IMG/VR virus record: IMGVR_UViG_3300045988_016972
Direction: 5' to 3' (one strand)
Origin: a virus
Length of the DNA: 39,863 nt
Made by a program: the position numbers and the translations under genes. Positions within the stretch are counted from its first letter, which is position 1. Each line of letters begins with the position of its first letter. The notes under the pieces are model-generated. The model searched no databases. It saw only the letters and a list, made by a program, of their open reading frames with translations, and had not been told where the DNA came from. Shown in pieces: positions 2,783-39,863 of the stretch.

Positions 2783-3364
2783 ATGGAGAAAACATTGCAG
2801 GACACTTGCCGGGACGCAAAACTGGAACAGCACATCACGGCGCAGGAGATAGCAGACCAATCCGGTGTGCCTTTGTCCAGCGTTAACAACTTTTTTGCAT
2901 CCACATCTAAAGCACCAGGCGTGTATGCCGCCGGGCCTATCTGTAAGGTGCTGGGGGTGTCCCTGGACCGTTACTTCGGCATTGTGGAAGTGGTTTTGGC
3001 GCAAGACCAAATCAAGCAGCTCCAGCAAGACCACGATGAAGATGTGCGCCTTGCGCGGATAGAGGGCGCATACGATGAGCTGCACAAATCGGCGGAGGAG
3101 CAGAAGAAAAAAGAAAAGCGGCAGCGCACGATGCTCTATATCACATCGCTGCTGTCCGCTATTTTGCTGGGCATAGTTACATGGTATATGGCGTTTGATT
3201 ACCGTATGCAAAACGATGGACTGATCCGCTCCGGGACAGTCGGTACGATTGCATGGGTTATCATTGCGCTTTTGGCGGTGGGTGTCGGCGTAATTACATC
3301 CGTGCTTTTGCTCACTTTTGCGGCGGACAAAAAATCCAAACAAGGCAAGGAAGCAGAAAAATGA
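2783..3364 (+). CDS. Membrane-anchored HTH protein (N-terminal XRE-like HTH, coiled coil, two C-terminal TM helices)
   Basis: ITAQEIADQSGVPLSSVNNFF... is an HTH. A charged helix (QQDHDEDVRLARIEGAYDELHKSAEEQKKKEKRQR) follows, then LYITSLLSAILLGIVTWYMAF and TIAWVIIALLAVGVGVITSVLLL. Confidence 0.65.
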   Translation: MEKTLQDTCRDAKLEQHITAQEIADQSGVPLSSVNNFFASTSKAPGVYAAGPICKVLGVSLDRYFGIVEVVLAQDQIKQLQQDHDEDVRLARIEGAYDELHKSAEEQKKKEKRQRTMLYITSLLSAILLGIVTWYMAFDYRMQNDGLIRSGTVGTIAWVIIALLAVGVGVITSVLLLTFAADKKSKQGKEAEK

Positions 3365-4455
3365 GCAACTGCATTAAATGCGGAACAACTCTTGTCCCGG
3401 GCGCCGTATATTGCCATCTCTGTGGGAAAAAACAGGTAACAGAGCGGCGCAAGGCTCTGAAACGCGCCAACGGAACAGGCTCGGTCTACAAGCTGACAGG
3501 CCGCAGGAAAGCCCCCTGGGTGGCCGCAAAGAACAGGGTGGTCATTGGGTACTACGAGCGCAAAACGGACGCACAAGCGGCCTTGGAGCGGCTGAACGGC
3601 AAGAGCCTAACGGATAGGTACAACATGACCTTTGCCGAAGTCTTCGATGCTTGGAAAGCAGAGCATTACAAAGAGATCGGCAAGCAGGGGATAGAATCAT
3701 ATAACAACGCCTACCGCATATTTACGCCGTTGCACGGAAAAAAGTTTCGTGATCTCCGCACCGCAGACTTCCAGGCCGTACTTGACCCACACATGGCCAA
3801 GAGCCATTCCACCGTGAACAAGTACAAGCAGCTCATAACGCAGATGTCGAACTGGGCAATCCGAGAGGAAATCTGCACAACAAATTTTGCAAAGTTTGTC
3901 CGGCTTCCAGAAAATGTAAAAAAAGAAAAGGACATCTTCACGGAGGAAGATATCCGTAAATTGGAATCCGACAACAGCGATGCGGCGAAAATTGTCTTGA
4001 TGCTGCTGGCAACGGGTATGCGCATCGGGGAACTGTTTTCCCTGCCGCTGGCTGACTGTCACGGTGATTATGTAATCGGCGGCGAAAAAACCGAAGCCGG
4101 CCGAAACAGAATTATCCCCATTCGGCCGGAGGGGAAACAGTACTTTGCCTACTTTGCGAAGCAAGCAACGGGGGAGCTGCTGTTATCCGGCTACGATGGG
4201 CAAAAAGTCCCAGCGAACTTCCGCAGGCGTGATTTTTACCCGCTTCTTGACAGGCTGGGAATAAAGCGCAAGACCCCGCACGCAACACGCCACACATACG
4301 CGTCCCGGGCGGTAAAAGAGGGATTGCCCCCGGAAATGCTGCAAAAAATACTCGGACACGCCGATTATTCCACCACCGCAAACATATATACGCACATCGA
4401 CGCGCAGACACTTGTGGATGCTGTTACTAACACGTTACTAACAAATAAAAAATAA
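3361..4455 (+). CDS. int: Tyrosine integrase with an N-terminal zinc ribbon and an arm-binding domain
   Basis: ATGA overlap with the upstream stop. CIKCG...CHLCG is followed by GSVYKLTGRRKAPWVAAK (arm-type domain). The catalytic context is ATGMRIGEL, HATRHTYAS and LGHADYSTTANIYTH. Confidence 0.9.
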   Translation: MSNCIKCGTTLVPGAVYCHLCGKKQVTERRKALKRANGTGSVYKLTGRRKAPWVAAKNRVVIGYYERKTDAQAALERLNGKSLTDRYNMTFAEVFDAWKAEHYKEIGKQGIESYNNAYRIFTPLHGKKFRDLRTADFQAVLDPHMAKSHSTVNKYKQLITQMSNWAIREEICTTNFAKFVRLPENVKKEKDIFTEEDIRKLESDNSDAAKIVLMLLATGMRIGELFSLPLADCHGDYVIGGEKTEAGRNRIIPIRPEGKQYFAYFAKQATGELLLSGYDGQKVPANFRRRDFYPLLDRLGIKRKTPHATRHTYASRAVKEGLPPEMLQKILGHADYSTTANIYTHIDAQTLVDAVTNTLLTNKK

Positions 4456-23725: not shown

Positions 23726-25378
23726 TTAGAACGGTCTTTTGAATATCTCAATCTTGCCGCTGATACGGTTTCTGATCTCGTTTTCCAGTAGCGACAGGGA
23801 ATCGGGAGCGTCATCGTGTGCCACCTTTCCGCTTCTGACATAGGTGGTCACTTCCTGCATGAAGCCCCAGTATTGACACCCTCGCTTGTATGTGGACGGA
23901 TGCTTGAAGTAGAAATGCTTCTTGATTCCGTCCGATGCAAACTCAATTCTTGTCTGTTTGTTGGAAATCGTCCTTTTTGTCCGTATGCTGGTGTTGAATC
24001 CTGCGTTTTTTACAAGCTCCGCAACATCTCTTGCGAAATACATACCGGCGTTGTTGGATTCAAACAGTGCATCGCCCACTTTGTTGTCAATCAGGCACTT
24101 TGCGCATTCCGGCTTTGTGACCTCTGCGGGAGAATCATCGTAAACCACATCAACGATGTAGACTTCCTCTCCGTATAAAGCCGCAACAGGCATCGCCGTG
24201 CTGTCTTTTCCGCTTTCTGCGGTGTCTGCCACGGCAATAATCGCATCCGGGTCACGATCTACCGGCAGTTCAAAGAAATAGTTCAGCTCCGACTTATTGA
24301 AAAGCAGCCCCTTTGCTTCAAAGGGCTGCTGCTGAAATTCGCTTTCAAACTGTTCCGCACTCAGAAGCTCCCTCTGCTCACGGAAATAAGCGGTGGTAAA
24401 TACCTTTTTCCCCTCCCGCTCATACTCATAATTGCTTTCGTCTGTAATGGGGTCAAGGGCAGGAATTTCAATAGCTTTCCACGCCCAGCCGCCCTTTTGC
24501 GCTTCCTCCTGTAAATGCCCGATTGGGTCATACAGGGAATATCTCGTCCCGGTCGCCACAATAGGCGTGCCCTCAATGGCGCGGCCTAAAATATCTCCGG
24601 AAATTACCTCCCACTTATCATCCAGCCGTTGACGGTTTTTCGCTTCCTCTCTGCCCTCCACGCAGTCATCCAAATAAAGGACATTGGTTGCCTCCGACAA
24701 ACCCACCTGCCGTGCGTCAATCGACCGGCACATGACCGTGGGGAATCGGGATTTTGACCGCAGATTGATGATTTTCGTGTCTGCGTTGGTCTGCACCAAT
24801 GGAGCATCTGGGAACACATCGTAGAACAAGTACTCGTTCGGCGTTTGCAAATATTCCAGACAGCCGTTATAGAAGCTTCGCACAAGATCATCGCCCGTGC
24901 CTTCCATCAAAGACGATTTATCCGGGTTTCTCCCGGAAATCATGTTGATGAAATTGATTCCAAGCTGGCTTTTCCCGGCTCTTTTCGGAAGCGAAATGGT
25001 CAGCAGCCTTAATTTGCCGTCAAGAACATCTTGATACCCTTGCACAATAGGTCTTAGATACCGCCTGCGTGGAGCGTAAAACCGCTTCTCCGGCTTTCTG
25101 TCCATCTCCACATACAGCAGGAAGGTATCGAAATCATGCGGCGCGTCAAACAGCATGGATTGCTTATGCAGCGTGTAGAAATACTCCGCGTCTTTTGGGT
25201 TTCCGTTACGCAACGCTTCGGAGGTCATCTTTCGGACTTCGGAATTTAACTGGTGCGCCGCAGCAAAATCTTCCGCTTCGTACCCAATGCACAACGCCAG
25301 CAAATCCTTGTAGGCTTCCCGGTCATGCGTTTTCTCTATGCGGTTTTTGATGCTTTCCGCAATCTTCCGATAATCCAT
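23726..25378 (-). CDS. terL: Terminase large subunit
   Basis: Walker A-like LPKRAGKSQ. 550 aa, upstream of the portal gene. AGGAGGA ribosome-binding site before ATG 25378. Confidence 0.85.
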   Translation of the reverse strand: MDYRKIAESIKNRIEKTHDREAYKDLLALCIGYEAEDFAAAHQLNSEVRKMTSEALRNGNPKDAEYFYTLHKQSMLFDAPHDFDTFLLYVEMDRKPEKRFYAPRRRYLRPIVQGYQDVLDGKLRLLTISLPKRAGKSQLGINFINMISGRNPDKSSLMEGTGDDLVRSFYNGCLEYLQTPNEYLFYDVFPDAPLVQTNADTKIINLRSKSRFPTVMCRSIDARQVGLSEATNVLYLDDCVEGREEAKNRQRLDDKWEVISGDILGRAIEGTPIVATGTRYSLYDPIGHLQEEAQKGGWAWKAIEIPALDPITDESNYEYEREGKKVFTTAYFREQRELLSAEQFESEFQQQPFEAKGLLFNKSELNYFFELPVDRDPDAIIAVADTAESGKDSTAMPVAALYGEEVYIVDVVYDDSPAEVTKPECAKCLIDNKVGDALFESNNAGMYFARDVAELVKNAGFNTSIRTKRTISNKQTRIEFASDGIKKHFYFKHPSTYKRGCQYWGFMQEVTTYVRSGKVAHDDAPDSLSLLENEIRNRISGKIEIFKRPF

Positions 25379-25390
25379 TTGTCCTCCTGC

Positions 25391-25426
25391 AATAAAAAAT
25401 GGACTGCCGAAAAATCGGTAGTCCAT
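25391..25426 (-). terminator. Intrinsic terminator immediately upstream of the terL ribosome-binding site
   Basis: Minus strand: an 11-bp stem (ATGGACTACCG/CGGCAGTCCAT, one mismatch) followed by TTTTTTATT. AGGAGGA and the terL ATG follow directly. Confidence 0.65.
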
Positions 25427-25447
25427 TCTATTTGGTTTTATGCAAAG

Positions 25448-25891
25448 TTAGTTTACAAGTTCACAATCTGACCAAGAACCTGCGCTATAACAAGTCCCCT
25501 CAAATGTGATTTCGTCTCCGACTTTAATGTTTTTCAAGGCTTCCTCTTGGTCTCTCTCAAATTCGGCAAGAAATACAACGATTGTATTCCCAATCTTCTT
25601 TTCCATCGTCAGGGTAGCCCCGCCGGTCATGTTCATAAGCCCACTGGTTTCCATCCCGTTGATTGTGGCGGTTACCTCATACCGTCTGCCTTTGTATAAA
25701 TCATCTGCCACAAGCTCGTTATCCTTGTAAGCCTGATAAATCTCCTCAAAGCTTGCCGGTGTGTACTGGTCTTCTTTGGCAGGTGCCTGTTCGTCATCTT
25801 TGTTGCTGTATGCAACAGCAAGGGTAATAATTAGCAGGATGGTACATACGATTATCATTTTCTTCTGCTTGGCAGGATTCGATTTTTTCAT
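25448..25891 (-). CDS. Membrane-anchored/secreted OB-fold (tRNA_anti-like family) protein
   Basis: The N-terminal anchor is KKMIIVCTILLIITLAVAY. The C-terminal segment ...YKGRRYEVTATINGME...IKVGDEITFEGTC...CELV matches the OB-fold tRNA_anti-like pattern. Confidence 0.55.
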   Translation of the reverse strand: MKKSNPAKQKKMIIVCTILLIITLAVAYSNKDDEQAPAKEDQYTPASFEEIYQAYKDNELVADDLYKGRRYEVTATINGMETSGLMNMTGGATLTMEKKIGNTIVVFLAEFERDQEEALKNIKVGDEITFEGTCYSAGSWSDCELVN

Positions 25892-25913
25892 TTCTCTTTC
25901 CTCCCTCTATTCA

Positions 25914-26501
25914 TCAACGCCGTCTCGGAATCCCTGCGGAATCCTCGTAGTCCCACATCCGGCGGTAAAAGGTTCTGCTGCTCACATTCAGCAGTTTCAC
26001 CGCGTGAGATGTTGTAATCTCCCGTTTGTACCATTGGTCATGCACCGACTTAACAAGGCTGTCTTCAATCTCGATCGGCTTGCGGCCTTTGTACTTGCCA
26101 GCCGCTTTTGCCGCCGCTATGCCCTCTCTCTGCCGCTGCAAGGTCTGCTCCCGTTCCAGCTCTGCCATTGCACCAAACACCGTAAGCATGAACTTGCCCT
26201 GCGGCGTATTCGTATCAATGGATTCCTTCTGCGATACAAAGCCCACACCTTTTTCTGTGAGCTGCTCTACCAGCGTCAACAAGTCCCTCGTGCTTCTCGC
26301 AAAGCGGCTGATGCTTTCAACAATGACCACATCTCCCTCTCGGACGAAATCCATCATCGCTTCCAGCTGCGGCCTGCCTGTACGGCTCTTCCCGCTGGCC
26401 TTGTCAATGTAGACACGCTCAACTCCAAGGTCTTGCATAATGACCTCTTGGCGGATTGTGTTCTGCTCCTCCGTGGACACTCGAATATATCCGACTTTCA
26501 T
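25914..26501 (-). CDS. Small serine recombinase (resolvase/invertase family)
   Basis: MKVGYIRVSTEEQ carries the catalytic Ser. Also present: ...DVVIVESISRFARSTRDLL..., ...GAMAELEREQTLQRQREGI... and a C-terminal HTH (AVKLLNVSSRTFYRRM). At about 195 aa it is too short to be a large serine integrase. Confidence 0.85.
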   Translation of the reverse strand: MKVGYIRVSTEEQNTIRQEVIMQDLGVERVYIDKASGKSRTGRPQLEAMMDFVREGDVVIVESISRFARSTRDLLTLVEQLTEKGVGFVSQKESIDTNTPQGKFMLTVFGAMAELEREQTLQRQREGIAAAKAAGKYKGRKPIEIEDSLVKSVHDQWYKREITTSHAVKLLNVSSRTFYRRMWDYEDSAGIPRRR

Positions 26502-26575
26502 GTGCATCGCTCCCTTCCTTCATCTTGTAAGGACAGTGTAGCACACGCAAGCCGATGTGTCAATAGGGCATATGT

Positions 26576-26674
26576 TAAAACCCGCCTTTTATTTTTTGGC
26601 AGATTTTCTAAAACCGGCTTTTTTATTTTTGGCGGGATTTTTAAAACTCGCCTTTTGTTTTGCGTTCGCCATTC
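26576..26674. repeat. Three tandem ~33-bp direct repeats (TAAAAC-N5-CTTTT...TTTGGC...) upstream of the recombinase gene; res-like site candidate
   Basis: R1 26576-26608, R2 26609-26641, R3 26642-~26674, aligned by eye at about 26/33 identity. Each contains an AAAAC..(G)C..TTTT dyad-like core. Confidence 0.6.
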
Positions 26675-26848
26675 ACGGTTGACCCCGGCCTCGGCTCCCG
26701 CCGCATATCCCCCGGCCCCCTACACCCGGCCCAGGGTAACCCCCCGGCGGGGCTGTGCGCCGTTAGGGTGTACCGTAATGCGCATAATGCACAATGCGGC
26801 AATAAAATTATTATGCACATTTTATGGCTACAATATGCGGCAAAACTA

Positions 26849-26878
26849 TTGACACATACTCTAATGGCATAGTATAAT
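26849..26878 (+). promoter_or_regulatory. Near-consensus promoter TTGACA-18 nt-TATAAT driving the plus-strand cassette genes
   Basis: TTGACA at 26849-26854 and TATAAT at 26873-26878. Upstream direct repeats ATGCGGCAA (26794-26802, 26835-26843) and (A/T)ATGCAC motifs are candidate operators. Confidence 0.65.
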
Positions 26879-27025
26879 ATCAGCATACAAGACGAGGGCG
26901 CACCCGGCAGCCGACCAAAGCACACCGGGAACGCCCCCCAACCAGCCAACAGGCCAGCACGGAGAGTATACCACATCCGGCAGCCGTTGGCAAGAGATAA
27001 GGCCATAGGGCCGGGAGGTAATACA

Positions 27026-27655
27026 ATGTCTTACAATTTCAAAATCGGAGATCTGAAAGAAAATGCCCGTTATACTGTTTCCACTGTTGACAAGTGGGAC
27101 GGAAGCACCAAAACCGAGGAAATGACCGGGGCGAGCTTGAAGAGCTTTGTAAACGGTTGTGCCCACCTATACGACATCCACGCCGAAGAAATCAGCGAAG
27201 AGGAAAAGACCCCCAACCGCACCGCTGAGGAGATCACCGCCGATATTATAGACTTCTTCCGGGCTAACGAGGACATCTACACCGACGCAATGGAAGAGCT
27301 TGACAGCTACAACGGATATTTAGGGGATGACCGTTATTACTCAATGGATGAGCTGGACGAACTATACAGCAGCACAGAGCCAAGCGAACTATTACGCCGG
27401 GCATATTACGGGTATGATGAAGAGACATACACCACGGACAGCTCCGGCAACAAGACATACGGCGAATTCAATCCAAATCGGGAATATTTCCGGTATAACG
27501 GATACGGCAATCTTGTTTCTGCTGATTATAAAGACTATTCCGGGCAGCTCGACAATTACGCCGTTGAGAGCATGAGCGAAAACCGCTCCTATATTGACAG
27601 CATTGAGCACTCGGACGAACTCGCCGCACTGTTTGACGAATTGGAAGAGCTTTAA
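27026..27655 (+). CDS. Highly acidic, Tyr/Asp/Glu-rich protein (209 aa) of unknown function
   Basis: GGGAGG ribosome-binding site before ATG 27026. The sequence has long acidic runs (EEISEEEKT, DELDELY, ELAALFDELEEL). No family was recognised with confidence. Confidence 0.65.
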   Translation: MSYNFKIGDLKENARYTVSTVDKWDGSTKTEEMTGASLKSFVNGCAHLYDIHAEEISEEEKTPNRTAEEITADIIDFFRANEDIYTDAMEELDSYNGYLGDDRYYSMDELDELYSSTEPSELLRRAYYGYDEETYTTDSSGNKTYGEFNPNREYFRYNGYGNLVSADYKDYSGQLDNYAVESMSENRSYIDSIEHSDELAALFDELEEL

Positions 27656-27670
27656 AGGGGGGCATGGAAC

Positions 27671-27937
27671 ATGAATCTTGATGCCATCATGGCCGAACTG
27701 GCCCAGTATATCCGGATGCAGGAGGAGGCCGCCGCAATGGTGGAGAGCCTCAAGGACCAGATCAAAGAGCGCATGACCGCCGCCGGGGTGGAATCCCTGG
27801 CGGGGTCAGAACACAAGGCCACCTATAAGGCGGTTACTTCCTCCAGAGTGGACACAGCCGCCCTTAAAAAGGAGCTGCCAGAGATCGCAGCCAAATACAC
27901 CAAAACGACCACCGCCCGCCGGTTTACTTTTGCTTGA
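27671..27937 (+). CDS. Small coiled-coil protein (88 aa), unknown function
   Basis: MNLDAIMAELAQYIRMQEEAAAMVESLKDQIKERM... It is a clean ORF 13 nt after the previous stop. Confidence 0.6.
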   Translation: MNLDAIMAELAQYIRMQEEAAAMVESLKDQIKERMTAAGVESLAGSEHKATYKAVTSSRVDTAALKKELPEIAAKYTKTTTARRFTFA

Positions 27938-27962
27938 CCCGCTCCGGCGGATGTGGTACAAT
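27934..27962 (+). promoter_or_regulatory. Near-consensus extended -10 promoter TTGACC-17 nt-(TGg)TACAAT
   Basis: TTGACC at 27934-27939, TG at 27954-27955 and TACAAT at 27957-27962. Confidence 0.6.
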
Positions 27963-27985
27963 CGAGATGTAAGGAGGTGTCGCCC

Positions 27986-28054
27986 TTGATCCTGTTGTAT
28001 ATCCTGTTGCAGCCTATTCTTCTGCTTTTCGATCTGGCCAAACTCCAGAAGTGA
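27986..28054 (+). CDS. 22-aa hydrophobic peptide MILLYILLQPILLLFDLAKLQK (type I toxin-like minigene); not in the ORF track
   Basis: AAGGAGGTG lies 6 nt before TTG 27986. The minigene has its own promoter and is followed by two terminators. Confidence 0.45.
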   Translation: MILLYILLQPILLLFDLAKLQK

Positions 28055-28060
28055 CCACCG

Positions 28061-28095
28061 CCCCGCATGGCGTAAGCTGTGCGGGGTTTTCCTTT
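28061..28095 (+). terminator. Rho-independent terminator
   Basis: CCCCGCA-12 nt-TGCGGGG followed by TTTTCCTTTG. Confidence 0.75.
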
Positions 28096-28098
28096 GCT

Positions 28099-28126
28099 CC
28101 CGGTGTATTCCGGGGGCTTTTCTTTT
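28099..28126 (+). terminator. Second tandem terminator
   Basis: CCCGG-TGTATT-CCGGG followed by GGCTTTTCTTTT. Confidence 0.55.
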
Positions 28127-28396
28127 GCGTGCCTCATTTGCCATTTTAACGGCCCTGCGCGGCGTTTTTGTCGTGGTGGCTATCCCTATATTGCCGCGCA
28201 CTCTGTGCGCGCTGTGTGCCCTGTCTTTGCGCTTGCGTTGTGGCTTTGTTTCCCGCGCCGTGGCTTGCCGCCGTTCTCGGCCCCGGGTGGCCTTTTCGCT
28301 GGCCGTCCACTGCTCCGGCGGTGCGGTCGCGGTGGCTGGTGGTGTGGGCACCTCCATGCTGGCCGTCCGGTGGCTGCTATGGTGTGCCCCTCTTCC

Positions 28397-28638
28397 AAAG
28401 TCGCCGGGAAAGTCGCAAAAGTCGCTGGCATAGTCGCTCGGCTCTGTGCGAAAGTCGCTGCGAAAGTCGCTACGAAAGTCGCTACGATCTGCGCCAAAGT
28501 CGCCCGCTTTTCCCCAAAATCATAGTCGTTTACAAAATTCCGTGTATAAAGGCGGGATTTTCTTTGCCCCATTTCCTTAAATTAACGGAAAGCCGCTCAA
28601 AAGTCGCTCGTTTTCGGCTCATTTTGCCTCAAAGTCGC
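28397..28638. repeat. Array of 10 copies of (A)AAGTCGC (GCGACTTT on the minus strand), partly with 12-bp spacing, starting inside the 3' end of terS
   Basis: Copies lie at 28397, 28409, 28418, 28432 (AGTCGC only), 28451, 28463, 28475, 28496, 28600 and 28631. Confidence 0.9.
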
Positions 28639-29188
28639 TGGCTTCAATGTACTTGCGCTGGAGCTGTTCGGGGGTCAAGCCCTCAATCTGCGGCTGATTC
28701 GGGGTCAAAACCATCTCCTGCTTGTCTACCATGCCGTAATAGTTCTTTGCGCGGAAGCAATAGGCAAGGAAATTCAGCTTCCCGGAAACCACAAGTTTTG
28801 CGTCAAAAGTCTGCAAAAAACCCTTGGCTTTTTTTATGATGGTTGCCGTTTCGGGGCTAAATCCCTTGCGTTTTCCGTATAGCCAGTCCTTAACCGTGCT
28901 AATTGAGTAGCCTGTTGTCATGTATAGTTCCTCTACTGTTGGGGTCTGTCCTGTCTCAGCGCACCGGGCAAAATAGTCGTTTATTCTCTCTGTAAGTTCT
29001 TCGTCACTCTTTACCTTTGGCTGTCTGTATTCTACAAGGGCTTCTGTAAGGAGGCGAGATACAAGGGCTCTATCTTCATCGCTGCTAAGGTCAGGCAGGG
29101 ATTGAGGGAAGTTTCTTTTCCCGCCTCTGCCGGTCTCCGGTCGGTTATCCTTTGCTTTTGCGATGGCGGTAGGCTTCTTTGTAGCCAT
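28619..29188 (-). CDS. terS: Terminase small subunit
   Basis: EELTERINDYFARCAETGQTPTVEELYMTTGYSISTVKDWL...IIKKAKGFLQ...LNFLAYCFRAKNYYGMVDKQE matches the Terminase_2-type small subunit pattern. Confidence 0.7.
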   Translation of the reverse strand: MATKKPTAIAKAKDNRPETGRGGKRNFPQSLPDLSSDEDRALVSRLLTEALVEYRQPKVKSDEELTERINDYFARCAETGQTPTVEELYMTTGYSISTVKDWLYGKRKGFSPETATIIKKAKGFLQTFDAKLVVSGKLNFLAYCFRAKNYYGMVDKQEMVLTPNQPQIEGLTPEQLQRKYIEASDFEAK

Positions 29189-29289
29189 TATGTATCACTC
29201 CTGTTCTATGTAATTCCCCTTTTACTCTGTTTCCGTGTTTGTCTCATCCGTCATGTCCTGCATCTTCGGCTGCGCCGCCTTTTTTGTTT

Positions 29290-31297: not shown

Positions 31298-31374
31298 TGG
31301 CAGGGACGGTTGGGAATCGAACCCACCCAAGCGGTTTTGGAGACCGCCTCGCCAGCCTTGGAACATTCGCCCCT
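31298..31374 (-). tRNA. tRNA-Trp(CCA)-like element with a non-canonical D arm
   Basis: Acceptor AGGGGCG/CGTCCCT. Perfect anticodon arm GCGGT-CTCCAAA-ACCGC. T loop TTCGATT, discriminator G and CCA. The D region (AATGTTCCAAGGCTGGCGAG) has no 4-bp stem, and the T stem has an extra or mismatched position. Confidence 0.5.
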
Positions 31375-31557: not shown

Positions 31558-31650
31558 TGGTGCAGACGGCTGGACTCGAACCAGCGACCAATGGCATTCA
31601 ATCGCATATCCATTTGCGCGATAAAGCTCTACCGACTGAGCTACGCCTGC
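31558..31650 (-). ncRNA. tRNA-like element (93 nt) lacking a canonical anticodon arm
   Basis: Acceptor GCAGGCG/CGTCTGC, D arm GCTC-AGTCGGTA-GAGC, T arm GCTGG-TTCGAGT-CCAGC, then A-CCA. Forty nt lie between the D and T arms instead of about 23. Confidence 0.55.
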
Positions 31651-36421: not shown

Positions 36422-37052
36422 CGGCTTCCTCCTTTCTGCGCTTCTCCCATGTTCTGACGGCAGCCTTCCAGTCCTTCATGCGGTTTTTCCCAACCATCCA
36501 TCCCTTGCTGGCGTAGAAATCGACGAACTGCTGTGCGTCAACCGCAGACCCCCGTTCGGAGATATAAGCCTGAACCTCGTCCAAAGAGGGCGGAGAGAAG
36601 CGCGCCTCGCGCGCATTATTCTCGCTTCTCGATTCTCGTATATCGATTCCCGATTCTCGATTCTCGAATACGGGAACATCTGCATTCATTTGTTTGCAAA
36701 TGATTTCATCTGCTTGCGTAGGCTCTACAGGCTCAGGATATTTGCTTTCCTTTGCTCTCTGGTTCTGATACTTACCCCATGTTGGTAGGTAGAGGAAGCG
36801 CTTGCCCTGTGAAGTATAAAGGGTAACCAATCCAGCACTCGCCAATCCATGAAGGGCGTTTTCTACAGTTTTCAGAGTAAGATTTTCTTTCAAAGGAAAT
36901 AGCCTGTTTTTGATAATTGCGGCCCGTCCGTCATAGCGCCCGAAATCATCGCAAGAAACAATCAGCCGATAGAACAAGACCTCCTCGAACCACGAAAGCC
37001 CATCTATGCTGTCGCTGGTGCAGATGCTCTCGCGTATGATTCTGTTCGGCAT
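36375..37052 (-). CDS. Phage replisome organizer (DnaD-like N-terminal domain)
   Basis: MPNRIIRESICTSDSIDGLSWFEEVLFYRLIVSCDDFGRYDGRAAIIKNRLFPL is the replisome-organizer N-terminal signature. The gene contains internal iterons. Confidence 0.75.
   Translation of the reverse strand: MPNRIIRESICTSDSIDGLSWFEEVLFYRLIVSCDDFGRYDGRAAIIKNRLFPLKENLTLKTVENALHGLASAGLVTLYTSQGKRFLYLPTWGKYQNQRAKESKYPEPVEPTQADEIICKQMNADVPVFENRESGIDIRESRSENNAREARFSPPSLDEVQAYISERGSAVDAQQFVDFYASKGWMVGKNRMKDWKAAVRTWEKRRKEEAGEQPTKQEYHVGTWL
36617..36665. repeat. Iterons (about 6 copies of (C)GATTCTCG and variants) inside the replisome organizer gene; putative origin of replication
   Basis: ATTCTCG lies at 36617, 36631, 36652 and 36659, with variants at 36624 and 36645. 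A CATTTG-TTTG-CAAATG inverted repeat follows at about 36686-36701. Confidence 0.55.
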
Positions 37053-39539: not shown

Positions 39540-39863
39540 TCCTCCACCTCCAAAATCTCGCCGTTTTGCAGCGTGTACCATGTATTTTCCTTGACGGCTT
39601 CTCCGTCCACCCTTACGATTTTGGCATCAATGATGTTTCCGTCATCGTCACGCTCCGATACCACAAGCCAGTTTCCCACAGAGCCTCTTGCAAGGCTATC
39701 TTGGCCCCATGCAACGGCGACGCACTGATTGCCAATCGCGGATGCTTTGCCATACAGGCCGGTCACAGCAGCCGTGCCACTCTCACCCGATGCGGCGGCG
39801 TTGCCACTCACACCCGATGCGGCGGCGTTGCCACTCTCACCCGATGCGGCGGCGTTGCCACTC
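39536..39863 (-). CDS. C-terminal part of the repeat-containing protein that starts at nt 501
   Basis: SGNAAASGE repeats are followed by GTAAVTGLYGKASAIGNQCVAVAWGQDSLARGSVGNWLVVSERDDDGNIIDAKIVRVDGEAVKENTWYTLQNGEILEVEE. The frame is in phase with 1..501 through the 55-nt overlap. Confidence 0.75.
   Translation of the reverse strand, partial: SGNAAASGESGNAAASGVSGNAAASGESGTAAVTGLYGKASAIGNQCVAVAWGQDSLARGSVGNWLVVSERDDDGNIIDAKIVRVDGEAVKENTWYTLQNGEILEVEE

Follow-up and report, generated by a model that had tools for sequence, protein, structure and literature searches.

The interval between the terminase genes

The window analysed here, i.e., the whole 39,863-nucleotide stretch of IMG/VR virus record IMGVR_UViG_3300045988_016972, is the near-complete genome of a temperate phage of the siphovirus type in which the minus strand carries most genes, and this report concerns the accessory genes that lie between its two terminase genes. 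The small terminase gene, terS (28619-29188, minus strand), encodes a protein of the P22 gp3 family (Pfam GP3_package at E=5e-8, above the cutoff; phrog_606), and the large terminase gene, terL (23726-25378, minus strand; phrog_38 at E=1e-44), neighbours an SPP1-type portal gene. The true start of terL is position 25378, after GGAGGA, and a longer open reading frame from 25426 crosses a terminator. Reading from terL towards terS, the interval holds a late-strand unit that encodes a membrane-anchored OB-fold protein and a small serine recombinase, a divergent control region, and a plus-strand operon that is convergent with late transcription and comprises a promoter, a structured leader RNA, genes for an acidic 209-amino-acid protein and an 88-amino-acid protein, and a 22-codon minigene followed by tandem terminators. 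Beyond these lie a GC-rich spacer and a direct-repeat array that reaches into the end of terS. We consider that the interval is probably a fixed and insulated accessory island, ancestral to this phage lineage, that acts as a hotspot of gene exchange between the presumed packaging site (pac) with terS and terL, and that is built of three units with two exchangeable slots.

A preliminary description of this DNA, made from the one sequence, had already pointed out the OB-fold protein and recombinase of the late strand, the two near-consensus plus-strand promoters, the very acidic protein, the 88-amino-acid protein, the hydrophobic minigene with its terminators, the octamer array and the terminator in front of the terL ribosome-binding site, and all of these parts were recovered here. 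Its view of the interval as an accessory module, apart from the packaging machinery, also holds, as gene content differs among close relatives. What it had proposed about the origin of the module fared differently.

Conservation of the interval in related phages

An IMG/VR scan with the terL of the window as query gave 80 loci (terL identity 78-100%), and a scan of species-representative genomes gave 16 prophage loci (terL identity 64-78%; terS detected in 11), whose hosts are Oscillospiraceae (Dysosmobacter, Faecousia), Lachnospiraceae (Moryella, Oribacterium) and others. The lineage is one of human-gut temperate phages that are very abundant in gut metagenomes. The terminase genes lie 3.15-4.84 kb apart in 71/71 IMG/VR loci that show both and 2.9-6.1 kb apart in 11/11 prophage loci with a detected terS, i.e., down to 64% terL identity, and directly adjacent terS and terL were found in none of these 71 loci and 11 prophages. 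Given that every relative has separated terS and terL, the split appears to be a hallmark of the lineage and the island a hotspot of gene exchange. A chimeric or mis-joined assembly was rejected, as the junctions are identical across isolate genomes and more than 70 independent contigs that come from several datasets. A literature search on genes between terminase subunits found no description of the present arrangement. There is a warning here for annotation: terS and terL need not adjoin, and prophage or terminase callers that depend on adjacency miss terS in this phage lineage.

Comparison of the window interval with its relatives by blastn revealed a backbone that is collinear and in the same orientation across clades 1 and 2, in the order promoter and leader, 88-amino-acid gene, minigene with terminators, and repeat array. 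The collinear segments are 26846-27028 (promoter and leader, in up to 60 loci), the 88-amino-acid gene, and 27953-29206. Two exchangeable slots, at 27029-27650 and 25440-25793, break this backbone, and their flanks are 80-100% identical.

The preliminary description had read the interval as a captured cassette of plasmid or transposon origin (a resolvase with its res site, an addiction-like minigene and a possible anti-restriction protein), lodged inside an otherwise contiguous terS-terL packaging operon. Some of what this calls for is present: a small serine recombinase does lie beside repeats, its gene is weakly plasmid-like, and the hydrophobic minigene, the acidic protein and the convergent genes with host-type promoters are all real. 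However, the plasmid DNA match is limited to a 140-nt piece of the recombinase gene, at ~70% identity to plasmid recombinase genes of Xylella and Methylotuvimicrobium, and the acidic and 88-amino-acid proteins gave no tblastn match in 72,556 plasmids (PLSDB), the 88-amino-acid family being a phage family. The GC content of the interval equals that of the phage (0.518 vs 0.525), so the interval is not compositionally foreign, and it contains neither a transposase gene nor terminal inverted repeats. The gap also appears to be ancestral, with a collinear backbone across clades and no relative in which the two genes adjoin; a conserved arrangement among relatives is what the preliminary description itself had named as speaking against its reading, and this is essentially what the comparison gave. 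We therefore regard a recent capture as extremely improbable.

The convergent operon

The plus-strand operon starts at a consensus sigma-70 promoter (26849-26878; TTGACA-18-TATAAT, 12/12 consensus positions), the -35 and -10 elements of which are retained in 52/52 aligned relatives. In the relatives it runs from promoter and leader through a first gene, often a gene of 74 or 91 codons and sometimes one of 53, to the 88-amino-acid gene, and then, sometimes by way of a gene of 77 or 89 codons, to the minigene and two terminators. The first-gene slot (27026-27655, plus strand) is occupied in the window by the acidic protein of 209 amino acids (isoelectric point 4.1; phrog_4534, function unassigned), which is carried by only ~4-6 of the 80 relatives, and the others have genes of 131-267 codons from the same ATG position (mostly 139; also 131, 160, 166, 206-213, 239 and 252-267). 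At least 10 alternative first genes thus begin at one ATG position, and 10 of them gave no reliable match in Pfam, PHROG, NCBIfam or PADLOC, two sub-threshold Pfam matches being all that was returned. The acidic protein has 2,880 unnamed homologues, in which the N-terminus is variable and a C-terminal domain of ~140 amino acids is conserved. It has no match in Pfam, NCBIfam or PADLOC, and its AlphaFold2 model, a low-confidence fold (predicted local distance difference test, pLDDT, 64), has no PDB match at E<0.4. The anti-restriction role that had been suggested for it is not borne out, as no similarity to ArdA or Ocr was found by sequence or fold, and its acidity is the sole resemblance.

The 88-amino-acid protein (27671-27937, plus strand) is predicted with high confidence (AlphaFold2 pLDDT 95.5) to consist of a long N-terminal helix (36 residues, 3-38, pLDDT 95) and a small alpha/beta domain. 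Its gene is present in 53/60 scanned intervals, and the family is large: 843 representative clusters, nearly all of them stand-alone phage proteins of 88-91 amino acids, and 1,785 close homologues, of which some occur on over 100 contigs. No PDB entry matched by sequence or fold. Among the predicted structures of BFVD, matches to the fold are the C-terminal domain of COG5377/YqaJ phage endonucleases, uncharacterised phage proteins and, more weakly, Gp157-like proteins; the PHROG match, to the C-terminus of phrog_434, agrees with this. A link of the protein to nucleases or recombination may reasonably be supposed from the modelled fold, and no more than such a link.

The minigene (27986-28054, plus strand) follows an extended -10 promoter (27934-27962, plus strand; 10/12 consensus positions, with the TG extension) and has a Shine-Dalgarno sequence, AAGGAGGTG, and 22 codons that encode the hydrophobic peptide MILLYILLQPILLLFDLAKLQK (grand average of hydropathy +1.5). 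Peptide, Shine-Dalgarno sequence and start position are kept in ~25 distinct relatives, with TTG, ATG or GTG as the start codon, and the DNA differs at many synonymous sites (e.g., GATCTGGCCAAACTCCAGAAG vs GACCTTGCAAAGCTCCAAAAA). As the peptide is retained through so many synonymous changes, the minigene is a real gene. Two tandem intrinsic terminators (28060-28117, plus strand; from a terminator scan) end the operon; they are 90-97% conserved and have a consensus fold of -36.8 kcal/mol (z=-9.5) on the plus strand. A short hydrophobic peptide with a strong Shine-Dalgarno sequence, its own promoter and a terminator directly 3' of the gene, on a mobile element, recalls type I toxin-antitoxin systems such as Fst/par, Ibs/Sib and Ldr. 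Unlike in those systems, no antisense RNA gene or promoter was identified for the minigene, the promoter scan giving no minus-strand promoter downstream of it, where the GC-rich region has no conserved structure; the peptide is also often encoded at the end of a longer operon. Late transcripts that read through from terS would run antisense to the minigene. The peptide may be a type I toxin, a membrane modulator or something else.

A probable structured leader RNA

The 140 nt between the operon promoter and the first ATG are predicted to form a structured 5' leader RNA with three hairpins, P1, P2 and P3 (26883-27029, plus strand), and are the most conserved DNA of the island. The minimum free energy of the leader is -56.1 kcal/mol (z=-5.4), and a run of C residues is able to pair with the leading Gs of GGGAGG, the Shine-Dalgarno sequence. 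A covariance model (R1) found a single copy in the window and in each of 57 clade 1/2 loci; clade 3 and the prophage loci gave none. The sequence of the hairpins changes among relatives in a paired manner. P1 exists in three types (GGGCG-CCCGG…CCGGG-CGCCC, GAGCG-CCGC…GCGG-CGCTC and GGGC-GC-CCGG…CCGG-GC-GCCC), P2 in two (CCAAC…GUUGG and ACCAG…CUGGU), the inner helices of which differ and which still pair in a chimera of the two (locus L008), and P3 shows a double compensatory change from GGCC/GGCC to GGAC/GUCC. When folded hairpin by hairpin, all variants reach one topology. Pairing holds for 82% of cells in the MAFFT and covariance-model alignments (27-49% in slid controls), and the covariation score of 0.075 was reached by 0/500 shuffles. 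Covariation is under-counted in these alignments, since clade 2 is out of register by 1 nt, and it was this shift between clades that made RNAalifold miss the structure on the raw MAFFT alignment, so that per-hairpin folding was used instead. G-U pairs (e.g., CCAGC/GUUGG) are tolerated on the plus strand only, which suggests that this strand is the functional one.

Rfam returned no match to the leader at the gathering score, and hits in 26840-27060 were at chance level (E>=3.9). We consider it well supported, if not proven, by the paired changes in the alignments that the leader is a conserved cis-regulatory structured RNA without an Rfam match, with few independent variants behind this view. 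If it is correct, the leader would be a candidate for a new cis-regulatory RNA. Part of the sequence conservation may serve another end, as a late-strand promoter-like site lies inside P2 (26965-26993, minus strand; TTGCCA-17-TATACT with TG), at ~70 bp from the operon promoter and facing it. Its spacer has a motif, CGGATGTGGTA, in common with the minigene promoter (inverted repeat I4), and its clade 2 equivalent, as read from the alignment, is TTGACC-17-TACACT. The pattern formed by P3 and the Shine-Dalgarno sequence was absent from the representative bacterial genomes searched, and no terL of more than 78% identity was present in the species-representative genomes scanned, which suggests that the host of clades 1 and 2 lies outside the genomes so represented.

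The recombinase unit and its control region

The late-strand recombinase (25914-26507, minus strand) has 197 amino acids, an N-terminal serine catalytic domain (Pfam Resolvase PF00239 at E=9e-45, residues 5-139, with the motif YIRVSTEEQ) and a C-terminal helix-turn-helix, which is the make-up of the small serine recombinases (~180-200 amino acids). Its PHROG match is a DNA invertase (phrog_125), and among solved structures it comes closest to Gin (E=1.6e-30), followed by gamma-delta resolvase (E=7e-26). Between this gene and the plus-strand operon lies a divergent control region (26508-26848), present once per genome, in which we distinguish a recombinase promoter (26535-26563, minus strand; promoter scan), A/T-spaced palindromic units of 33 bp (26575-26656), a G/C-rich segment (26680-26760, 79% GC) and a set of ATGCGGCA/ATGCGCA motifs (26768-26842). 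The res-like repeats had been counted as three; the repeats themselves are there, and three is a generous count, as Tandem Repeats Finder gives 2.5 copies of period 33 with 80% match.

Within clade 1 the recombinase occurs in two variants, A and B, with catalytic domains that are 91-97% identical at the DNA level and helix-turn-helix domains that differ (…SHAVKLLNVSSRTFYRR vs …AYAVKRLGVSRNTFYRR; 59-73% at the DNA level). Also replaced (53-76% identity) is the DNA ahead of the gene, at 26560-26890, and ~450 bp of conserved sequence separates it from the helix-turn-helix codons. The A-type helix-turn-helix goes with the ATGCGGCA/ATGCGCA motifs and the B-type with ATGGGCA/GGGCAT, an agreement seen in 27/27 loci, and such co-variation is as expected if the recombinase binds the control region. 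We postulate, from these sequence patterns, that it would do so as at a res-like site and operator, in the manner of the Tn3 resolvase between tnpR and tnpA. The arrangement is indeed reminiscent of tnpR-res-tnpA in Tn3 and gamma-delta, as the recombinase gene diverges from the neighbouring unit across ~300 bp of repeat-rich DNA and its DNA-binding domain co-varies with the intergenic motifs, and this supports a Tn3-like reading, in line with the resolvase beside repeats of the preliminary description. It differs in that there is no transposase and no terminal inverted repeat, that three canonical subsites could not be defined, that a second copy of res is not evident, and that the 33-bp units show no co-variation with the helix-turn-helix. 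A second copy would be supplied by a dimer or by a molecule with terminal redundancy. If the binding is as we propose, this would be a natural swap of the DNA-binding domain of a small serine recombinase, matched by changes in the presumed site, and useful for understanding recombinase specificity as well as for its engineering.

Several observations weigh against this picture of the recombinase. The 33-bp units are the same in both helix-turn-helix variants and may not be recombinase sites at all; their role may be architectural, or another factor may bind them. The co-variation itself has two states only, and could partly reflect linkage or shared descent. Finally, some relatives have no recombinase, so that it is dispensable. 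Clades 2 and 3 carry replacement versions of it, of 56% and 30% identity.

The kinship with Gin raises another possibility, that the recombinase is the invertase of a phase-variation switch and inverts either 279 bp between 12-bp inverted repeats (26555 and 26846) or the whole plus-strand operon. The best matches in PDB and PHROG are DNA invertases, a perfect 12-bp inverted repeat, CTATTGACACAT, overlaps the -35 elements of both divergent promoters, similar promoters in opposite orientation lie at 26993 and 27934, and minus-strand genes flank the plus-strand genes. However, chance alone would give ~0.3 perfect 12-bp inverted repeats per 3.4 kb, and half of CTATTGACACAT is the shared -35 hexamer. 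An exact 11-mer of the repeat unit, GGCGGGATTTT, recurs in an invariant block beside terS (at 28551) in direct, not inverted, orientation. In addition, ~80 independent assemblies contain no segment in opposite orientation apart from that of locus L039, where an inverted piece with deletions has its breakpoints elsewhere (in terS and the GC-rich spacer) and marks a rearranged genome or an assembly artefact. As relatives show no inverted segment, a Gin-like switch was rejected as a working model and we hold it to be very unlikely. The likeness to Gin, Hin and Cin thus goes no further than the catalytic domain and the fact of being phage-encoded; there is no invertible segment, no orientation polymorphism in the ~80 relatives and no tail-fibre gene nearby. 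Excision between the direct copies of GGCGGGATTTT was likewise considered and rejected, as the operon between them is missing from none of the relatives.

A second serine recombinase of ~270 amino acids (Resolvase and Recombinase domains, phrog_95) is encoded directly upstream of the 197-amino-acid one in loci L002, L020, L042 and L044, and L086 (6309-7124) also has this second type, among loci with a phrog_95 gene beside or instead of the 197-amino-acid one.

The other gene of the unit (25448-25891, minus strand) encodes the OB-fold protein of 147 amino acids (Pfam tRNA_anti-like, E=2e-11), for which a hydrophobic N-terminal anchor was read from the sequence and which matches phrog_8545, 'superinfection exclusion Sie-like' (E=1.6e-7). 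Relatives either lack it or have other membrane-anchored proteins or lipoproteins encoded in its place, and wherever there is a gene between the recombinase and terL it encodes a membrane-anchored protein or lipoprotein with an exchangeable ectodomain. An intrinsic terminator (25398-25427, minus strand; a 13-bp stem and a T-run, 8 nt upstream of the terL ribosome-binding site) closes the unit. In nearly every lineage a strong hairpin with a T-run precedes the terL ribosome-binding site by 10-20 nt, and the stem sequences are unrelated. Such conservation of position suggests a terminator that insulates the late genes from the accessory unit, in which case late transcription would have to read through it to reach terL; we identified no antiterminator. 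In having a terminator directly upstream of late structural genes, conserved here in position and not in sequence, the arrangement is comparable to PR'-tR' of lambda with its Q protein. Unlike there, no Q-like gene or qut site was identified, and ~1.1 kb of accessory genes lie between promoter and terminator.

The gap of a Moryella indoligenes prophage (L093, 5205-7155) contains, on the strand opposite to terL, genes for an FtsK/SpoIIIE-like ATPase (phrog_1358, E=2e-60) and a 152-amino-acid protein with a poly-Glu tail end, and two small genes.

The repeat array beside terS

Next to terS lies an array of direct repeats, AAAGTCGC (GCGACTTT on the late strand), at 28397-28640, with nine exact and further degenerate copies spaced 9, 12 or 21 bp. 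All nine exact copies in the window (9/9) fall in 28397-28638 and on the same strand, against a mean of 1.6 and a maximum of 4 in shuffled sequence. The final codons of terS already hold copies of the motif, one of them at 28631-28638. In every relative of the Oscillospiraceae type, the array, of the general form CGACTWT, begins in the last codons of terS (…ASDFE or ASDYE) and extends downstream, with 4-10 copies at spacings of 9, 12, 21 or 33 bp; locus L073 has a pure 10-bp tandem. Phase coherence of the copies across 30 distinct arrays peaks at ~11.25 bp (R=0.80), so that they face roughly one side of the helix. The Lachnospiraceae branch has a different repeat, GCAGAAR, in the same place, starting in the C-terminal codons of TerS and followed by GC-rich DNA. 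A cis element in or beside terS is thus common to all lineages, and its motif changes in the Lachnospiraceae branch. In L090-L097 the GCAGAAR array lies within 0-120 nt either side of the terS stop, and a complementary motif, CTCTGCG/CCTCTGC, occurs downstream in the GC-rich DNA.

Between the terS-proximal and the main repeat clusters is an invariant 40-bp block (28521-28560) with an imperfect palindrome, AAAATTCCG-N-CGGGATTTT. Across 32 distinct relatives its columns are 97-98% identical (60-85% in the flanks), its core, TTTATACACGG, is retained in clade 2, and it contains a weak late-strand promoter-like match (9/12 in the promoter scan). On the operon side follows the GC-rich spacer (28120-28396), variable in length, with many indels. 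The preliminary description had called most of it (28130-28395) GC-rich and free of open reading frames; the former is right (65% GC), and the latter is not, as long open reading frames are present. None of these is conserved in frame or position among relatives, and the spacer is therefore non-coding. Two other readings of this DNA were rejected. A structured RNA in the spacer is not supported, as its consensus fold is negligible on both strands (-15 to -18 kcal/mol over 284 nt) and Rfam gave no match. A coding repeat (a 128-amino-acid open reading frame at 28186-28572, in which the array would be read as ATF repeats) is ruled out by the period of 10 bp in L073 and by a frame and extent that are not conserved.

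Phased array, invariant block and spacer probably constitute the pac region, where the TerS ring would engage and wrap the DNA. The P22 pac site lies inside gene 3, and TerS binding is weak and difficult to demonstrate on short oligonucleotides (PMC9611059); for SF6 and SPP1, a ring of helix-turn-helix motifs has been proposed to pick an intrinsically bent segment through many weak contacts (PMC4737164). A phased array beside terS fits this ring-binding model, which is why we take it for the pac region. Common to these phages and the present one are the signal in or next to terS and a gp3-family TerS, and phased contacts would suit a ring that selects bent DNA (PMC4737164). In contrast, the P22 site is a single asymmetric 22-bp sequence within gene 3, whereas the array consists of 8-11 direct repeats from the last codons of terS to 240 bp past the gene. 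If the assignment is right, such a phased-repeat candidate could make the long-debated recognition of DNA by TerS rings testable in a gp3-family system.

Three findings count against a packaging role. The motif does not track the core of TerS, as four TerS types, 26-47% identical, all go with CGACTWT. The TerS of L073 is nearest to the GCAGAAR group and yet its repeats are CGACTAT; this contradicts a strict co-variation of TerS with the motif, a claim that we have cut to co-variation at the lineage level. In ~9 clade 2 loci, moreover, the last repeat overlaps the -35 element of a consensus late-strand promoter (TTGACA-17-TATAAT), which would suit an array of transcriptional operators. The array might accordingly be read as an operator or activator of late transcription, a plasmid-like partition site or the iterons of a replication origin, and the motif shared by phages with such divergent TerS and the weak promoter-like match in the invariant block would be in keeping with this. 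However, the array always abuts or overlaps the 3' end of terS, whatever comes next, no partition genes were seen and the phage has a tyrosine integrase, a separate array of ~10 copies of 27 bp sits by the replication genes, and phased repeats suit wrapping by a TerS ring (PMC4737164). We consider a function other than packaging unlikely.

Some further observations concern this region. The clade 2 loci with the consensus promoter over the last repeat include L055-L057, L059, L065-L067 and L070, where it lies ~120-330 nt after the terS stop, and in these loci it drives a 99-amino-acid Cys-containing protein (MTGYYPHLLECTMCDD…). The P22 pac oligonucleotide AGAGAAGATTTATCTGAAGTCG (PMC9611059) ends in AAGTCG, the core of the octamer, and the TerS proteins of both phages are of the gp3 family; the resemblance is weak and may be coincidence. 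In L039 (4627-4870), the 3' end of terS and the array (equivalent to window positions 28360-28654) are inverted and flanking deletions truncate terS, in what is a defective genome or an assembly artefact.

Proposed organisation of the island

We postulate that the three units of the island would be separated from each other and from late transcription by terminators. The first is the candidate pac region by terS, where the TerS ring would wrap the phased array. The second is the convergent operon, which would be transcribed from the sigma-70 promoter, with translation probably gated by pairing of the leader C-run with the Shine-Dalgarno sequence, and whose output would be the exchangeable first gene, the 88-amino-acid protein and the 22-amino-acid hydrophobic peptide, up to the tandem terminators. 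The third, on the late strand and with a promoter of its own, would supply the recombinase and an exchangeable membrane-anchored surface protein, and end at the terminator before terL. Judging by matches to promoter consensus only, the second and third units would be expressed from host-type promoters, independently of late transcription, in the prophage or as early 'moron' genes. Their products may have surface-protection and small effector roles, under the control of a resolvase-type regulator and the leader RNA. Against this assignment of roles stands the absence of a functional annotation for the acidic protein, the 88-amino-acid protein and all alternative first genes in the searches made.

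In two respects the island behaves as morons do. It has promoters and terminators of its own (consensus matches at 26849, 27934 and 26563 for the former, and at 28060-28117 and 25398-25427 for the latter), and its contents are variably present, the first-gene slot and the OB-fold gene being replaced or absent between flanks that are 80-100% identical. Morons and lysogenic-conversion cassettes of lambdoid and HK97-type phages, and the hotspots of P2/P4-type phages, are likewise promoter-gene-terminator units between conserved genes, vary in presence among close relatives, and include superinfection-exclusion-like membrane proteins. The present island differs from them in that it sits between terS and terL, that one unit is convergent with late transcription, that a backbone (structured leader, 88-amino-acid gene, minigene and recombinase) is conserved, and that its cargo has no match to known defence families. 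As a phage moron or hotspot the island belongs to a known kind of element, and what is new is its position, the conserved backbone, the leader RNA, the phased array and the domain-swapped recombinase. If our reading is correct, the island would offer a hotspot with fixed borders in which to seek superinfection-exclusion, anti-defence and host-modulating genes of Oscillospiraceae phages.

The position of the island beside a candidate pac also admits an explanation from the order of DNA entry. Were packaging to run from the array towards terL, virions filled with the first headful would carry the island in their terminal redundancy, and it would enter the cell first, as the early genes of T7 and T5 do. 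The operon, which points along the direction of entry and would be gated by the leader RNA, could then make proteins that modulate nucleases or counter defences ahead of the remaining genome, and the recombinase could circularise the genome through a site present at both redundant ends, i.e., a serine analogue of Cre-lox in P1 combined with the strategy of T7 and of plasmid leading regions. The distances are suitable, as the promoter at 26849 is ~1.7 kb and the control region 1.7-2.0 kb from the array, within a redundancy of 4-5% of a 40-kb genome. The operon faces away from terL, towards pac, and has a strong promoter of constitutive type, its first gene turns over fast, like anti-defence loci, the 88-amino-acid fold is shared with the C-terminal domain of phage exonucleases and with Gp157-like proteins, and a recombinase with its cognate site is kept here in three clades (versions 100%, 56% and 30% identical). 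As in P1, where Cre-loxP lies near pac, the recombinase and its presumed site are less than ~2 kb from the presumed start of packaging and could fall in the terminal redundancy. On the other hand, this explanation presupposes a packaging direction, a size of redundancy and an identity of pac, and any benefit would be limited to the initial headful of a packaging series. The recombinase is missing from some relatives, and the slot genes have no match to known anti-defence or defence families. Small serine resolvases of the Tn3/gamma-delta type, moreover, normally need supercoiled substrates with full res sites. The parallel with P1 is also imperfect, as the recombinase is a serine and not a tyrosine enzyme, the phage integrates by a tyrosine integrase and is not a plasmid, and the placing of its virion ends is conjectural. 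We judge a leading-end function decidedly unlikely, and favour the accessory island with exchangeable slots.

Other features of the phage genome

The tyrosine integrase gene lies at 3253-4455 (plus strand), and the window further encodes an amidase endolysin, Erf and DnaC-like early proteins and the SPP1-type portal protein. A 27-bp tandem repeat, CACCCGATGCGGCGGCGTTGCCACTCT, adjoins the early and replication genes at 3-175 (6.4 copies) and 39775-39863 (3.3 copies). Both ends of the window thus fall inside a single array of ~10 copies, which shows that the contig is circularly closed. Lying by the replication genes, this array is a better candidate for an origin (iterons) than the one beside terS.

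Near the lysogeny end of the genome (1177-1443, plus strand), Rfam gave a match to FuFi-1 RNA (RF02986) of 93 bits, vs a gathering score of 59.6. Two tRNA genes, for tRNA-Trp(cca) and an unusually long (93-nt) tRNA-Ala(cgc), lie at 31298-31374 and 31558-31650 (minus strand). A 7-bp tandem repeat, ATTCTCG, is present in 7 copies at 36618-36667, in the early region near the DnaC/IstB-like gene.

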